IMG/VR virus record: IMGVR_UViG_3300031673_000001
DNA from: a virus
Lineage: Duplodnaviria > Caudoviricetes
DNA length: 64,000 nt
Strand: one strand, 5' to 3'
Under the pieces are notes generated by a model. The model saw only the letters and a list, made by a program, of their open reading frames with translations. It did no database searches and was not told where the DNA came from. Shown piece by piece: positions 5,570 through 54,095 of this stretch. The position numbers were made by a program, and so were the translations under genes. How positions within the stretch are numbered: position 1 is the stretch's first letter; the number at the start of each line of letters is the position of its first letter.

Positions 5570-5587
5570 TGGTTCAGCATACGATTC

Positions 5588-5631
5588 AAAAAAAATATAA
5601 GTGGATTTCTATAACCCACTTATATTTTTTT
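5588..5631. terminator. Bidirectional intrinsic terminator
   Basis: AAAAAAATATAAGTGG...CCACTTATATTTTTTT inverted repeat between convergent genes. Confidence 0.75.
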
Positions 5632-28141: not shown

Positions 28142-29158
28142 CTATTTTCCCATTCCTTTAACATCTGCAATAGTTCTAATAAGTAAACCATTGGCAACAG
28201 CAGTCAAAGGGTTTTTAGCTCGTCGAATCTCTGATACTTCAAATGGTAATTCTTTCTGCATAATTATTTGTCTAAATAAAGTTACAAATCCCTCTGGTAA
28301 AGAAGTTCCACCTGAAATTACAATTGGAATAGCATCATCCAATTCAATATCAGCTTTATCATTAAATTCTTTTATTATTTTTTTAATTGTATATTCAATC
28401 AATGCTTTATGATAATAAAATAAAGCTTCTAACATTCTTTTATCTTTTTTATTTTTAATGTTGACTTCGCCCTTTAACTTCATATACTTTTCTTTTTTAT
28501 TAGTAACTCTATTTACAACTACACCCATATCAGCAGCTACTTGTTCATCAATCCAATCTCCAGCTCTAGCTGTTGAAAATTTCAATACTTCAATACCTTT
28601 ATAAGCTATTGCAGCATTTGCCATACCAGCACCAAAACTAATACCAATTCCACTAAATTTTTCCTTTGCACACTCTGAAAATATAATTGCCATAGCTTCA
28701 TTTACAGATGTATGGTTAACACCCAAACTATTTAAAATTCTTGCAAATACACCTTCGTGATAAGTTATAGAACGTTCATTGTCAATGGACTCTGCTGGAA
28801 TTGAATATGAACAATACATATCTTTATCTTTTGTTTCACCAATCAAATCTTTAATAATCAATGTTAAAACATCAATAGCATTAATTTCCTTGGATGAAAT
28901 AAGACCCTTTTCCATAGGTCTTGAAACTTTTTGACCTAACATATTTGCTAACTCAAAAGCATGAGATCCAATCACATAAGTTTCACCTTCACTACTTTCA
29001 ACATAACTTATATCAGCAATATCTGGAATATCATCTTTATCTACTTCTAAAAATACATTTCTTGTCATTCTTATATCATCTGAATCAGATCTAGCACAAA
29101 CAATATTCATCGTACCAACATCGAGACCTATACAAGAAACCTTTGATTTCTCGCTCAT
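28142..29158 (-). CDS. Actin-like ATPase (MreB/MamK/ParM superfamily)
   Basis: Phosphate-1 IGLDVGT, connect-1 VNEAMA, phosphate-2 ISFGAGMAN, AGDWID, adenosine ISGGTSLP, connect-2 NPLTAVANG. Confidence 0.88.
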   Translation of the reverse strand: MSEKSKVSCIGLDVGTMNIVCARSDSDDIRMTRNVFLEVDKDDIPDIADISYVESSEGETYVIGSHAFELANMLGQKVSRPMEKGLISSKEINAIDVLTLIIKDLIGETKDKDMYCSYSIPAESIDNERSITYHEGVFARILNSLGVNHTSVNEAMAIIFSECAKEKFSGIGISFGAGMANAAIAYKGIEVLKFSTARAGDWIDEQVAADMGVVVNRVTNKKEKYMKLKGEVNIKNKKDKRMLEALFYYHKALIEYTIKKIIKEFNDKADIELDDAIPIVISGGTSLPEGFVTLFRQIIMQKELPFEVSEIRRAKNPLTAVANGLLIRTIADVKGMGK

Positions 29159-30541: not shown

Positions 30542-31399
30542 TTATTTCATCTTTGACTTAACTTTTGAAATTTTTTCATCTAATTTGTCACTACACTTTT
30601 GTGGATTTGGTGTTTTAACACAATAACTTTTAGCTTTTTGTAACATCTCAATCTGTTTTTTTCTACCAGCATTTTTAAATTTTTCAATGCATTTTGTTTT
30701 AGCTTCTCCTTTACTACTCTTACAAGCATCAACTGCACCACTTGCTTTACTTCTATATGCTGAAAATGCTCCAGCTACTGCCCAAGCTAATAGAACTCCT
30801 AATGCTATAGCAGTACGATTACTTATCTGATAATCTGTAGTTGCACTACTATATACTGTAACCCATTCTTTTAGATTTTCTAAATGTTCATCTACAACAT
30901 CATTATCTGAAAAATTATTATCTGGATCCATTGTAATTGACCTCCCTATATTTAAAGCTTTCTCAATTATTTTTCTTTGATCAGGCATGACCAACATACC
31001 AGCTTGTCCCACTTCCAAAATAAATTTATAATCACTATGCTCTTTTGATAGTCTAATTTTTTGATCTGGATTCAACATTCGACATAAAAAATTATAGCAG
31101 GTAGTTTGTCTTTCCCCTCTATCAGCTAAATAAGTAAATTTATCAATGTATTTAATAGGAGTTACATCTAAACCAGTTTCTTCCTTAACTTCTCTTTTTA
31201 AACATTTGATTATATCTTCACCAACAGGTTTATCACATTTTCCGCGAGGAAATTCCCAATGAAGTGGCCAATGATCATCTGCAGATCTCTGTATCAATAA
31301 TATCATTGTCTCACCATTTTCGCCTTCCTTCATTACAATTCCAGCAGCTGCTTTCATAAATACTTTTGGTTTATCACTTATCATCTTCCTTTTCCTCAT
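30542..31399 (-). CDS. NUDIX hydrolase fused to TM plus 4-Cys domain
   Basis: Nudix box FPRGKCD...CLKREVKEETGL; C-terminal AC..SKG..KTKC...C.KT.NPQKC. Confidence 0.85.
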   Translation of the reverse strand: MRKRKMISDKPKVFMKAAAGIVMKEGENGETMILLIQRSADDHWPLHWEFPRGKCDKPVGEDIIKCLKREVKEETGLDVTPIKYIDKFTYLADRGERQTTCYNFLCRMLNPDQKIRLSKEHSDYKFILEVGQAGMLVMPDQRKIIEKALNIGRSITMDPDNNFSDNDVVDEHLENLKEWVTVYSSATTDYQISNRTAIALGVLLAWAVAGAFSAYRSKASGAVDACKSSKGEAKTKCIEKFKNAGRKKQIEMLQKAKSYCVKTPNPQKCSDKLDEKISKVKSKMK

Positions 31400-31883
31400 C
31401 TAACATAAGACTTAAAACTTCCATCTGTCTCGGTGTTATTTTATTTGGATAACAACTCAAAGGAACTTTAACAAATTCAATTTTAGCTGTTTTCTCTAAT
31501 AATGCATCTAATTCTTTTTGTTTATTCTTAACTCCCTCAATATATTTAGAATGTTTTTCATCAACTATTTTCATCTCACCTATAAACAAGTTTTTATTAT
31601 TTCCAGTAAATACAAAATGACCCCGACCATCAATTGGTGACTTTTCACTTTTGAAATTTTTTTGTTCATCTCTTTCAGCATATTTTTCAATTACTGCCAT
31701 TCGATCATTTCTATATTCCTCCCCACCTTCTATGGCAGTTAAAGAAAGCTTTTTAACCTCATCAAGCTCATATAATCCAAGAGCAATATTTTTCATAACA
31801 GCAAAAGAAAACTCAGGAGTTGCTTCAACATTTTCAATCTTTTTCAACTCGTTAACAAATTCTAATATACTTTCTAACTTCAT
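31374..31883 (-). CDS. Hypothetical phage protein
   Basis: ORF track; AAGGA RBS. Confidence 0.65.
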   Translation of the reverse strand: MKLESILEFVNELKKIENVEATPEFSFAVMKNIALGLYELDEVKKLSLTAIEGGEEYRNDRMAVIEKYAERDEQKNFKSEKSPIDGRGHFVFTGNNKNLFIGEMKIVDEKHSKYIEGVKNKQKELDALLEKTAKIEFVKVPLSCYPNKITPRQMEVLSLMLDEEKEDDK

Positions 31884-31905
31884 TTTTATTCCTTTCTTTA
31901 AAAAA

Positions 31906-31980
31906 TCCTATAGTAGCAGGAACTCGAACAATTCAAGACCGATCAGGTGTGCATGATTCACCTGTCCTACTACCATAGGA
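31906..31980 (-). ncRNA. Structured three-way-junction RNA element, copy 1
   Basis: 16-bp outer stem with two G-U pairs only on the minus strand, enclosing two hairpins. Confidence 0.55.
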
Positions 31981-31988
31981 AGATTAAA

Positions 31989-32061
31989 TCCTATGGTAGT
32001 GAGAACTTGACCAATTCAAGTCAATGCCAGGGTGCTTGATTCCCTGCTCACTACCATAGGA
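31989..32061 (-). ncRNA. Structured three-way-junction RNA element, copy 2
   Basis: Perfect 15-bp outer stem; same loops as copy 1 (AATCAWGCA, TTGAATTG); stems covary. Confidence 0.55.
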
Positions 32062-32075
32062 AATTATATTCTACT

Positions 32076-33134
32076 TTATCTTGACAATTTCCAATTCAGT
32101 TTATAATTCGCACTATCTATTAAGTTATCAAATGCTACTACAAATCCATCTACTGTTTTACTTGTAACCATATATTGATAAAATGATGGAGATGGATCAG
32201 TTATATTTTCTAACGTACAGACTGGATGATAATCTTCATCCACTTGTGCTACTACAAATACTACTGCTACTGATGTTGAATCGCTTGAGATATCTTCTAC
32301 ACCACCAATAAACTCATCAACTGTATAACTTGTCAACCACAAACCTGATGTTGAATCCCAAGTAAGTATCGACCCTTCAACTGTTCCAGTAACGTTTACA
32401 TCAGCTAATAGATTTAAATCACCAAAAACTGATGGATATACAAGAATTGATCCATTCACTCCTGATATAATAACAGTTCCTACAAATCCTTTATAATATG
32501 GACTAGGTGGTGGACTATCTCTTAGACCTCCTGGTATTGATTCTGAAACCCATAAACCTGCTCCTTCTGCAAATGTACTTGTATTAATATTACGTACCAT
32601 TCCTAAAAGAGTTATATAGCCATTATTATTATTATCAATACTATGAGTTGCTACTCCTATTCTCTTAATAATTTTCTCTTGTGCAATCGCTTGCGATAAA
32701 TCAACTGTTGGAGTTTGTCCACTTGATCCATTAATATAAACAATTTGTCCACTAAGAATATCACTACCTGTTAAATTCCTAACTCTCACATGCATTTCTT
32801 GACCAACCTGTAAAGTAACATCTGAAACATCATTATATAATCCCAACGTATTTGAACTATCATCCCAGAATACACGACCTCTATTCCAAGATGGAACAAC
32901 ACCATCTGTTTTAAAATCCGTATACTCTATATCTGTTAAACGTTCTACACTAATTTGTAAAACTGAAGTCCCATCATATGTTAATCTAACATTATCAGTT
33001 CCCAATTTACTAAATTCACTCAATAATTGATCTACAGTCACTTTTATTGAAGTATCAGATTGTGACATTTCCATTAACTCGGAACCATTTAATGGAATTG
33101 TTGGATCATTTAATTCTATAATTTTTTTTGCCAT
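32076..33134 (-). CDS. Putative tail-fibre/virion structural protein
   Basis: Beta-rich; VRVRN.TG..I..G..VYI.G, IGVAT..I..N..GYIT..G.VRNINTS pattern seen in phage fibres. Confidence 0.55.
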   Translation of the reverse strand: MAKKIIELNDPTIPLNGSELMEMSQSDTSIKVTVDQLLSEFSKLGTDNVRLTYDGTSVLQISVERLTDIEYTDFKTDGVVPSWNRGRVFWDDSSNTLGLYNDVSDVTLQVGQEMHVRVRNLTGSDILSGQIVYINGSSGQTPTVDLSQAIAQEKIIKRIGVATHSIDNNNNGYITLLGMVRNINTSTFAEGAGLWVSESIPGGLRDSPPPSPYYKGFVGTVIISGVNGSILVYPSVFGDLNLLADVNVTGTVEGSILTWDSTSGLWLTSYTVDEFIGGVEDISSDSTSVAVVFVVAQVDEDYHPVCTLENITDPSPSFYQYMVTSKTVDGFVVAFDNLIDSANYKLNWKLSR

Positions 33135-33149
33135 TATACTATCCTCTTA

Positions 33150-34505
33150 TTATAATACCCTTATATCATCATCATCTGTTAATCTTACTTCTCCATTATC
33201 TGTTAATCTTATTTCAGAAGCTAAACTAGAACTAAAAGAACTAGAACTTAAACTTGAGATACTGATTGATATGGAACTAGAACTTGATGAATTAATATCT
33301 TCATATACAAACAGTTCTAAAAACCAACCTGCTTCAAGTGTAACATTTGCCATTTTAATTCTCAACGTATTTCCATTGCTGACAATTAAAAAATGATCTC
33401 CATAATTCAACTCTCCATACCTTGAATTAACAACTAACATCAATCTATTAGTTATCTGCTCTGGTATTGTAATATCTAAATATGTTTCTTGTGCAGCATC
33501 TGTTGCTGTAACCTCATGAAAATATCTAGTCTTAAAAATATAATCTCCCACATTATCTATTTCACAAGTTGCATCTGAAGGGTCGAGATATGTAATACTA
33601 TTATTTGATGTTTCATCCAATCCCCAATCCCAATGATAATCATATAACTGTCTATTAACGGGAGGTTGATAGTCATTATATGCTGAATATGCTGAACCAT
33701 ATCTCAATTCTAAATTAACATTTTCAGCTAAATAATCTGACTCTAAAATAAGATAATTTGGTATTTCAATTTCATAATTAATAGTTGAAGTTAATCTCCA
33801 TTCAGCTATTTTATCTGGACCACCATATCTATTACTTGCATCTGACATATTAACTAATGAAATTTGTGGTTTAATATTTAATGGCAAAACTACTTCATTT
33901 CTAGCTGTTGATCTCACTAATTGATTTGAGGCATTTGCTGTTGTCCAATCTATATTATAAGTCATACCAGTATACTCATTACTATACTCATATGTCAAAA
34001 ATGAATCTGGTAGAATAATAAATGATGAAAAGAATCTAGGATAGATAATTCTATCCGTTCCACCAAAATAATTAATCAGCATGAGTCTTAAATCACAATA
34101 TTCATAAAAGCTATTCAACATCATTATCAACTCAAACTCACCCTTTATCCTTATAAATCCAGCATGCATAATTAAATGATCATCCTGGTATATAGGATTA
34201 AAAAGTCGTTTGATCATTGTAGGAGCTAAATTTGGATATCTCCACAATTGCCTACCACCAGCATTTCCATCTGCTGGAGAGAAGTCCCCAGAAGGATTTA
34301 AAATTAACGCAGGTAATAGAGGTTGATCTGTTTCTCTATCATATTGTGCTCTTTTCGCCAAATACTCTACAGCTTTGTCATAGGTTCCCACAACTCTATA
34401 TTCAAATCGAGGATAAAGGGTTGTACTGAAATAATCCAACATATCCTTAAAAAAATGACCGAATACATTATGTATAAAATGATATGTTTCCCTAGTTTGT
34501 GCCAT
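33150..34505 (-). CDS. Putative virion structural protein with C-terminal Ser-rich tract
   Basis: 451 aa; GAGG RBS; SSSSSSISISISSLSSSSFSSS then RLTD repeats. Confidence 0.55.
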   Translation of the reverse strand: MAQTRETYHFIHNVFGHFFKDMLDYFSTTLYPRFEYRVVGTYDKAVEYLAKRAQYDRETDQPLLPALILNPSGDFSPADGNAGGRQLWRYPNLAPTMIKRLFNPIYQDDHLIMHAGFIRIKGEFELIMMLNSFYEYCDLRLMLINYFGGTDRIIYPRFFSSFIILPDSFLTYEYSNEYTGMTYNIDWTTANASNQLVRSTARNEVVLPLNIKPQISLVNMSDASNRYGGPDKIAEWRLTSTINYEIEIPNYLILESDYLAENVNLELRYGSAYSAYNDYQPPVNRQLYDYHWDWGLDETSNNSITYLDPSDATCEIDNVGDYIFKTRYFHEVTATDAAQETYLDITIPEQITNRLMLVVNSRYGELNYGDHFLIVSNGNTLRIKMANVTLEAGWFLELFVYEDINSSSSSSISISISSLSSSSFSSSLASEIRLTDNGEVRLTDDDDIRVL

Positions 34506-37123: not shown

Positions 37124-37205
37124 TTACTAATTCTCCTTTCTTGGATTTACTCTATTATTTATTTGTTACTTACAATAATTGAATAGACTCAATTGTTAGG
37201 ACTTC

Positions 37206-37264
37206 TCCCCCACCGGTGGGGATGTGCTCACCTGGTGCCCGCAAGGGCAGAAAGGTGGAAGCAC
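37206..37264. other. GC-rich palindrome plus GNRA-capped stem-loop
   Basis: CCCCACCGGTGGGG (37208-37221); GTGCT/CACCT/TGCCC-GCAA-GGGCA/AGGTG/AGCAC (37224-37264). Confidence 0.6.
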
Positions 37265-37448
37265 GGAATTACTTTCCTTTTTTATTTAACTCTTCTATAA
37301 TCTCTTTTCTTGTCTCTTTCTTTCTGTTCTAATAACTAGGACTAATAGCTCTTTATACTATATAAGTTCCTTATATAAGCAGTTGTACTTCAGTGAAATA
37401 ATTGAAAAAAATCAATTAATCTATGCCTTAATATATAAGCAGAAGTAA

Positions 37449-40331: not shown

Positions 40332-40335
40332 ACAA

Positions 40336-40382
40336 TTATGACACATCTTATAAATTTATATAAGATGTGTCATAACTTTTTT
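40336..40382 (+). terminator. Intrinsic terminator
   Basis: TTATGACACATCTTATA stem with its inverted copy, followed by a T-tract. Confidence 0.75.
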
Positions 40383-40445
40383 AAATTTTCTTCCACAAAT
40401 TAAGATTATTTTTTAAATAAAAGGAACAAAATAATAAATACATTT

Positions 40446-53262: not shown

Positions 53263-53589
53263 ATGGCACTACACGAAGATATCGTAGCAGATGTTGCAAA
53301 TTCAAACTTTAAGGTTATCGCAAACGCAACCGCATCAGGTATTGCACAAGCTGGTTCATTAGCTGCTTTAAATGCAGCTTCCCATCAACATGCCCTAAAT
53401 CTGATCAGCTCAGCGTTCTTGGCAGAGGCAATTATGCCACGTGCAGGTGTTGATGTAACTGAAGCAGTTGGATCCAAGAAAGTTGCGGAATCAGATCTTG
53501 CTCGCACAGTCGATGAACTAGGAACAGCTATAGCTGCCCTGCAACAAATCATCAAAACCGCACAAACCACACCACCCGTAACCCCGTAA
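53263..53589 (+). CDS. RebB-like (R-body) protein, copy 1
   Basis: I..DV.NSNFKV.A.A, NA.SHQ..LN, C-terminal QQIIKTAQTTPP resemble recalled RebB-like proteins; AGGAG RBS. Confidence 0.6.
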   Translation: MALHEDIVADVANSNFKVIANATASGIAQAGSLAALNAASHQHALNLISSAFLAEAIMPRAGVDVTEAVGSKKVAESDLARTVDELGTAIAALQQIIKTAQTTPPVTP

Positions 53590-53610
53590 TATAGGGTTAT
53601 GATATTTTAG

Positions 53611-53648
53611 AAAAGATCGGGATGGGATAAATCTCACTCCGATCTTTT
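53611..53648 (+). terminator. Stem-loop/terminator after Reb-like copy 1
   Basis: AAAAGATCGG...CCGATCTTTT. Confidence 0.65.
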
Positions 53649-53674
53649 AACATAATTAAATAGGAGAATAAAAA

Positions 53675-54001
53675 ATGGCACTACACGAAGATATAGTAGC
53701 AGATGTTGCAAATTCGAACTTTAAAGTAGTTGCAAACGCAACTGCGTCAGGTGTTGCACAAGCTGGTTCATTAGCTGCTTTAAATGCAGCTTCACATCAA
53801 CAAGGACTAAATCAAATAAGTTCGGCATTCTTGGCAGAGGCAATTATGCCACGTGCAGGTGTTGATATAACAGAAGCAGTTGGAACCAAGAAAGTAGCTG
53901 AGGCAGATCTTTCTAGAAGCGTTGCTGAACTAGGAACAGCTCTAGCTGCTCTCCAACAAATCATTAAAACTGCACAAACTACATTACCTATAACTCCGTA
54001 A
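53675..54001 (+). CDS. RebB-like (R-body) protein, copy 2
   Basis: 14 substitutions in 108 aa versus copy 1; near-identical RBS region. Confidence 0.6.
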   Translation: MALHEDIVADVANSNFKVVANATASGVAQAGSLAALNAASHQQGLNQISSAFLAEAIMPRAGVDITEAVGTKKVAEADLSRSVAELGTALAALQQIIKTAQTTLPITP

Positions 54002-54019
54002 TAGAGTAATTGTTTAATT

Positions 54020-54057
54020 AAATCAGAGTGGAAGAAATTCCTCTCTGATTTTTTTTT
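54020..54057 (+). terminator. Intrinsic terminator after Reb-like copy 2
   Basis: AAATCAGAG...CTCTGATTT plus T-tract. Confidence 0.75.
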
Positions 54058-54095
54058 AAATTAGAAATCCCAAACAAAGTAAAATACAAGGAGGT

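Follow-up and report, generated by a model that had tools for sequence, protein, structure and literature searches.

What is the function of the 192-nt gap between a putative virion-surface gene and a gene for a small helical protein in an uncultivated giant phage? The gap lies in a stretch of 64,000 nucleotides, the whole of which we analysed and refer to as the window. This DNA is 30% GC, and proteins identical to its own are found on contigs of up to 237 kb. Among its genes are those for a ribonucleotide reductase, a RecA-like protein, helicases, a glycan cluster and an actin-like Volactin homolog. Minus-strand genes follow one another head to tail between about 37.1 kb and 5.6 kb, and within the first ~14 kb of these co-oriented genes the gap is the only sizeable non-coding stretch. 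A preliminary description made from the sequence had reported two RNA-like elements in it.

Tandem Y-shaped units and their neighbouring genes

The gap is on the minus strand between the genes at 32076-33134 and 31374-31883, and it consists of two tandem units with an 83-nt period. Both flanking genes and the element share the minus strand, which is therefore the coding strand, and the sequences and coordinates quoted in the preliminary description were correct on that strand. Each unit has a closing stem (P1), two inner hairpins (P2 and P3) and a joining segment (J2/3). A covariance model, R1, was built from the element sequences. The features are as follows, in the order of transcription.

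33150..34505, minus strand: 451-aa gene, conserved proximal part; product 87% identical to the first 404 aa of a 744-aa protein of lineage L022
32076..33134, minus strand: upstream gene, 352 aa, variable distal module of a putative virion-surface protein; stop codon 14 nt before copy 2
31989..32061, minus strand: copy 2 (upstream), Y-shaped; 107.6 bits against model R1
32047-32061 with 31989-32003, minus strand: P1 of copy 2, 15 bp
32042-32046 with 32028-32032, minus strand: P2 of copy 2, with loop AAUCAAGCA at 32033-32041
32021-32027, minus strand: J2/3 of copy 2
32016-32020 with 32006-32010, minus strand: P3 of copy 2, with loop AUUGG at 32011-32015
31986..31988, minus strand: U-run after copy 2, UUU and then AAUCUU; together with 31981-31985 it makes up the 8-nt spacer to copy 1
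31969..32000, minus strand: alternative hairpin in which the copy 2 3' arm pairs with the copy 1 5' arm; 12 bp, 8-nt loop, about -20 kcal/mol
31906..31980, minus strand: copy 1 (downstream), Y-shaped; 76.1 bits against model R1
31965-31980 with 31906-31921, minus strand: P1 of copy 1, 16 bp with two G-U pairs
31959-31964 with 31944-31949, minus strand: P2 of copy 1, 6 bp, with loop AAUCAUGCA
31933-31937 with 31923-31927, minus strand: P3 of copy 1, with one G-U pair and loop AUUGU
31900..31905, minus strand: U6 tract directly 3' of copy 1 P1; stem plus U6 gives a discriminant of d = +4.0
31374..31883, minus strand: downstream gene, 169 aa, helical phage protein; ribosome-binding site AAAGGA at 31890-31895, and 22 nt from P1 to the AUG

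Upstream of the element are genes of 650, 202, 451 and 352 aa. The 352-aa protein has a weak match to PF09956 and weak likenesses to cement, head-fibre and collagen-fibre proteins, and its homologs are few and mosaic. On these weak matches, its gene may encode the distal module of a virion-surface protein of cement, head-fibre or fibre-like type. The label "fibre-like" given to it earlier is thus reasonable, but the distance from its stop codon to the element is 14 nt rather than the 15 nt first reported. In L022, the part of the 744-aa protein that follows the conserved region is unrelated to the window's 352-aa protein. Given that the proximal part is conserved and the distal parts are unrelated, the element stands at the 3' edge of a swappable distal module.

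A modular build of the virion-surface gene is seen in the window (32076-34505), in L022 (3154-5388) and in L024 and L025, with the proximal 404 aa kept and the distal parts unrelated. Its total length among the relatives ranges from 406 to 933 aa, and in the window a gene of its own encodes the distal part. We rejected the interpretation of the 451-aa and 352-aa genes as one gene read through a stop; they are in the same frame and are separated by TAATAA.

The predicted fold of the 169-aa downstream protein (pLDDT 88) matches uncharacterised phage proteins only, and after its gene come those for a NUDIX enzyme and other proteins. At 28142-29158, a few genes past the element, the window encodes a 338-aa protein with a match to the Pfam family Volactin (PF25216, E = 1.6e-74), an actin-like ATPase, and this gene is present in all of the syntenic relatives. 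At the head of the minus-strand block, the longest non-coding gap (37124-37448) contains a GC-rich palindrome and a stable stem (-66 kcal/mol). It could serve as promoter or regulatory region of the operon to which the element belongs.

Conservation of the fold and of its strand

On the minus strand, copy 2 with its UUU has a minimum free energy of -37.1 kcal/mol (z = -6.1) and copy 1 with its U6 has one of -34.4 kcal/mol (z = -5.7); none of 200 shuffles folded equally well in either case. The minus-strand fold of the whole 192-nt gap reaches -73 kcal/mol (z = -7.2). At -0.38 kcal/mol per nt, compared with -0.05 to -0.25 in the other intergenic regions, it is by a wide margin the most structured intergenic region of the window.

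The tandem arrangement also allows the alternative hairpin at 31969..32000, and with it a translation-coupled attenuator. In such a device, a ribosome at the stop codon before copy 2 would mask the 5' arm of that copy and leave its 3' arm to pair with the 5' arm of copy 1, which would prevent formation of the U6 terminator. When the 5' arm of copy 2 has at least 8 nt blocked, the minimum-free-energy fold does switch to the 12-bp middle hairpin, with loss of copy 1 P1. This property, however, is inherent in any tandem palindromic repeat, because the tandem layout of palindromic units creates the middle hairpin automatically. The relatives have single copies, and two full Y folds are much more stable than the alternative (-73 versus about -56 kcal/mol). 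We consider attenuation of this kind highly improbable.

Seven distinct sequences were aligned, namely the two window copies and single copies from five related metagenomic phage lineages (six lineages in total). The alignment was tested against the three-helix structure with 500 shuffles, and the pairing partners were slid by 1-3 columns as controls. Standard base pairs are present in 172 of 172 cells, and neither the pairing nor the covariation score was reached by any of the 500 shuffles. The slid controls had 31-45% pairing and zero double changes. RNAalifold, given no structure, recovered the same three helices together with two extra pairs at the base of P3.

Compensatory change was found in each of the three helices. 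One P1 pair changes from G-C to A-U in two sequences, and the neighbouring pair occurs as A-U, G-U and G-C. In P3, one pair is U-A, U-G or C-G, another changes from G-C to A-U, and a third changes from U-A to U-G. P2 has one extra base pair in the downstream copy. The fold is real and has been maintained by evolution in related phages. The three-way junction first proposed from the window alone is thus borne out, with z of about -6 and all three helices recovered by RNAalifold, and the homologs from five further lineages strengthen it. The compensatory changes originally seen between the two copies are genuine across the seven sequences, except that part of the difference in the first hairpin is one inserted base pair and not three substitutions.

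One-sided changes occur in 8 cells, representing about 5-6 events, and every one of them gives a G-U pair on the sense strand. The three G-U pairs already recognized in copy 1 are real, two in the outer stem and one in the second hairpin. In each of the seven sequences the sense fold is 0.5 to 12.2 kcal/mol more stable than the antisense fold; for copy 1 the plus strand reaches only -22.2 kcal/mol, a loss of about 12 kcal/mol relative to the minus strand. Given that all of the one-sided changes are sense-strand G-U pairs and that the sense fold is better in seven of seven sequences, selection has acted on the sense single strand, in agreement with the function as minus-strand single-stranded nucleic acid suggested earlier. 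By these comparisons, the selected molecule would most simply be mRNA.

Two structural details of the preliminary description did not survive the alignment. The second hairpin had been drawn as TTGAC/GTCAA around TTGAATTG, a register that is wrong and that is present in copy 2 and its closest relatives only. All seven sequences instead keep CUUGA/UCAAG (with the variants CUCGA/UCGAG, CUUAA/UUAGG and CUUGA/UCGAG), a 5-bp stem with a 5-nt loop. Kissing of the loops, or multimerisation like that of the phi29 pRNA, had also been suggested. The loop invoked is not conserved as a loop, and the sole possible pairing, UCAA with UUGG, has been lost in L024, L027 and copy 1 with no compensating change. 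Neither loop-loop kissing nor a pseudoknot showed covariation, and both were rejected.

Six of the seven sequences have an identical 9-nt P2 loop, with the single change in the downstream copy, and L038 has lost the closing pair of this loop. The P3 loop and J2/3 are somewhat variable. Copy 2 has 90-96% nucleotide identity with the elements of the relatives, compared with 74-75% for the window's downstream gene and the same relatives (about 69-70% at third codon positions). All 23 of its unpaired bases are identical in L022, where the flanking gene is only 74% identical. Copy 1 has 73-76% identity with every other copy, which is about the divergence of the flanking gene. A generic terminator needs no conserved unpaired bases, so their conservation points to sequence-specific recognition or to recent exchange. 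Constraint on the loop sequence through specific recognition and recent exchange of copy 2 would both fit the pattern.

Relatives of the element and the origin of the two copies

The element is present in L022, in L024 (identical in L025 and L026), in L027 (identical in L028), in L037 and in L038 (identical in L039-L041). L022 was found by a P1-based pattern scan of genome contigs, and the other loci were found through homologs of the 169-aa protein. Each of these five lineages has one copy, between a variable upstream gene and a 165-167-aa homolog of the downstream protein; among the lineages compared, the tandem arrangement occurs in the window phage only. In every lineage the element is on the coding strand, with 3 to 30 nt between the upstream stop codon and its start and 22-36 nt between its end and the next AUG.

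No such structure is present at the syntenic site in the three most distant relatives, L029, L031 and L032, whose downstream proteins are 53% (L029) and 45-47% (L031 and L032) identical to that of the window. The function of the element is therefore dispensable. L031 and the window agree in the coding sequence for the C-terminal end of the upstream protein and in the ribosome-binding-site region, and because both flanks are shared, the window looks like a clean insertion relative to L031.

The element-less spacers of L029 (2878-3000) and L032 (2441-2494) contain decayed coding remnants, including serine-rich codons, and a copy of the NYKLNWK-coding words seen at the end of the window's 352-aa gene. 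These remnants suggest that the junction has been remodelled repeatedly. A contig from run X7 (marine sediment) that spans window positions 31460-31885 is about 96% identical in the 169-aa gene; immediately before the start codon all similarity to the window ends (255 unlike letters), and the contig represents another junction variant. L022 is a 10-kb contig (JAGXNV010000095.1) binned into a 'Candidatus Heimdallarchaeota' metagenome-assembled genome (MAG). It is syntenic with the window phage gene for gene (650-aa, 203-aa, fibre-like, 166-aa, NUDIX and 263-aa genes), and it is most likely phage DNA mis-binned into an archaeal MAG, or else a hint about the host.

Searches beyond these loci returned little. 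The P1-based scan of genome contigs gave L022 as a true relative and L023 as an unrelated hairpin, and a P2-pattern scan gave L022 plus one chance coding match, L042. The element was not found in IMG/VR by P1-based and P2-based pattern scans. A loop-based pattern had 14 matches in viral contigs, all of them chance matches and none with the fold, and BLAST of the element against 50,697 phage records gave chance fragments only. A pattern for the 5' half had no match in metagenome contigs, a collection from which the source samples are evidently absent. Homologs of the upstream 352-aa protein yielded no syntenic element. One DNA contig from another study is identical to the window across the element. 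Model R1, run with filters off, found the two tandem copies and no further ones in the 64-kb window; there were no other copies in the relatives' loci by the same model, and none elsewhere in the three collections by pattern scans.

This distribution bears on whether the element is a DNA-level feature, either a small palindromic insertion of the MITE or Correia kind or a landing pad for recombination, with the RNA fold as a by-product. The terminal inverted repeats of 12-15 bp, the presence/absence polymorphism with its clean-insertion look against L031, the tandem duplication in a single lineage and the position exactly where upstream modules exchange are all compatible with such an origin. 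Correia elements, MITEs and the PeSL cassettes of T4-like phages are similarly intergenic inverted repeats, with presence/absence variation and a location at the border of module exchange. Unlike them, however, the element occupies a single locus and has no target-site duplication visible at its flanks. The absence of dispersed copies from the 64-kb window and the relatives' loci also speaks against a REP or MITE family. All of the wobble pairs favour one strand, and the compensatory changes maintain inner helices that would be useless to a DNA repeat; strand-specific wobbles and covariation argue for selection at the RNA level over a mobile DNA element. We therefore think a purely DNA-level explanation very unlikely.

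Two more specific DNA-level candidates were rejected. Invertase sites do not agree with the strand-specific wobble pairs and the 45-nt core, and a target-site hairpin of a diversity-generating retroelement would call for a repeat of 32076-32700, which does not occur elsewhere in the window.

The difference between the two copies could have been caused by a recombination event. The downstream copy is probably the resident ortholog, which has diverged at about the local rate with every pair kept, and the upstream copy probably came in with the 352-aa distal module. Three observations favour a recent import of the upstream copy. L024 and L025 have an identical element and downstream gene and begin to diverge 83 nt before the upstream stop; the TAATCT that precedes the downstream copy matches the stop codon plus TCT that precedes the element in L022 and L027; and only the window phage has two copies.

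A proposed leaky terminator and other candidate functions

We predict, with about even confidence, that the element, within its long operon, works as an intrinsic terminator that is branched and leaky and also as a 3' stabiliser. The Y structure, with its 15-16 bp closing stem and two short hairpins, would act in cis on the sense mRNA. Together with the U-run it would form a leaky Rho-independent terminator, and it would also cap the 3' end of the upstream message against 3'-to-5' exonucleases. The virion-surface message would then accumulate above the message for the downstream enzymes and other genes, which would be reached through read-through, and the tandem pair of the window phage would strengthen the stop. 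Read-through would be needed because the space that follows the element is too short for a promoter, and a terminator placed mid-operon without a downstream promoter must be leaky. The processing or stability role considered in the preliminary description agrees with this prediction, but we found no evidence of the separate transcript that its alternative suggestion of a new non-coding RNA class would imply.

The tails that follow P1 are U6 in copy 1, UUUUC in four lineages, and UUCUU or UUU. Copy 1 is positive in a discriminant of the d'Aubenton-Carafa type trained on E. coli (d = +4.0), and its U6, which had been overlooked, resembles the ends of the phage's ordinary terminators. Four of the five tails scored, including that of copy 2 (score 2.97), are below the E. 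coli-trained threshold. The branching keeps a simple terminator scan from calling the element: the simple hairpin with a short loop that is expected of Rho-independent terminators is replaced by a fold with two inner hairpins. In style, P1 matches the evident terminators of this phage, for example in the gaps 40332-40445 and 54002-54095, which are long perfect stems followed by U6-U9. Another observation against termination as the function is that a swap of the upstream gene leaves the element with the downstream gene (L024 versus L025). The contigs of two RNA libraries map only to parts of the flanking genes and give no evidence either way on the element.

Canonical intrinsic terminators, with hairpins of up to 18 bp and U6-U9, are found in the gaps 40332-40445, 53590-53674, 54002-54095 and 5570-5619. 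Two of them follow tandem 108-aa paralogs at 53263-54001.

The element resembles Rho-independent terminators, including the tandem ones of phages, in having a sense-strand stem just past a stop codon, a U-run, and a doubling of the kind seen at strong stops. It differs from them in being branched, in the conservation of its inner hairpins and loops, in having mostly short U-runs and in lying mid-operon. Like the intercistronic 3' stabilisers (the REP sequences of malE-malF, the puf hairpins and the plastid 3'-UTR repeats), it is a stable structure between cistrons that could set mRNA levels; unlike REP it is not dispersed, and it has no homology to any of them.

The element could also be a processing or protein-binding site, in which RNase III cuts the P1 duplex or a host or phage protein binds the conserved loops. 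Expression of the upstream module would thereby be uncoupled from that of the downstream genes, as at the intercistronic RNase III sites of T7 and at lambda sib. The perfect duplex of 15-16 bp and the location within a polycistronic unit that requires read-through are consistent with such a site, as is the conservation of the P2 loop (six of seven invariant) and of J2/3 beyond what a plain hairpin would need. The identity of the element (90-97%) compared with that of the neighbouring gene (74-94%) points in the same direction, although the conservation of copy 2 could stem from recent recombination rather than constraint. RNase III favours roughly two helical turns of duplex. P1 alone is below this length, and ~20 bp is reached only if P1 is stacked on P2 or P3. 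No gene for an obvious candidate RNA-binding protein adjoins the element, given that the 169-aa neighbour matches uncharacterised helical proteins only. The T7 RNase III sites and the lambda sib/tI region, which is both a terminator and an RNase III site, are likewise phage mRNA structures 3' of a gene that decide the fate of the upstream message, but they are irregular single hairpins of ~20 bp or more with internal loops, in contrast to the perfect stem and three-way junction found here. We regard this function as unlikely, though worth weighing.

The same conserved bases would suit a phage riboregulator of a new class. A specific protein or RNA would recognize the invariant 9-nt loop and the junction of this three-way fold, which would set an expression boundary at the 3' edge of the module. 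Such an element might in addition be a conserved landing pad for module exchange between giant phages. We offer this only tentatively and think it a similarly doubtful proposal.

The element could instead be a free-standing small RNA of ~75-80 nt that arises from the operon transcript by cutting or termination and acts in trans as a decoy, as a Y-RNA-like partner of an RNA-binding protein or as an anti-defence RNA. The pairing of its 5' and 3' ends in a long stem with a U-tail gives it the compact closed architecture of many stable small RNAs, and its loop sequences are conserved. There is, however, no promoter space and no conserved promoter-like motif upstream of the element, and the element is missing from the more distant relatives. 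No Rfam family was matched at E values up to 10, the Y RNA families included. A separate small RNA therefore seems quite improbable to us.

The search of the whole 64 kb with Rfam 15 at gathering thresholds gave no match, and around the element the hits at E values up to 10 were at chance level only, the best being a plastid 3'-UTR hairpin (E = 1.9). ARAGORN found no tRNA or tmRNA in the window. The earlier statement that the element corresponds to no known riboswitch, tRNA or ribozyme is thus consistent with the absence of any Rfam family or tRNA match. The phi29 pRNA is also a phage three-way-junction RNA, but the element does not match its model, has no covarying intermolecular loop pairs and is half its size. 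The pRNA has its own promoter at the genome end, whereas the element is embedded in an operon. From these comparisons the element would be classed as a conserved, branched element of terminator or stabiliser type that belongs to no catalogued RNA family.

A survey of viruses and phages predicted ~10,000 candidate structured RNAs, of which >1,000 contain Rho-independent terminators (PMC10690425). By our pattern scans, the window's clade is not in the collection used for that survey. The element is one among thousands of predicted structured-RNA candidates of phages, many of them containing terminators (PMC10690425). It is nonetheless a well-supported new RNA motif, with seven sequences and covariation in three helices, from an uncultivated phage clade. 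If it does act as a leaky terminator and 3' stabiliser, it would be a clean example of a giant phage punctuating a very long operon, by means of a conserved, branched, leaky stop placed just after a virion-surface gene with an exchangeable outer module.
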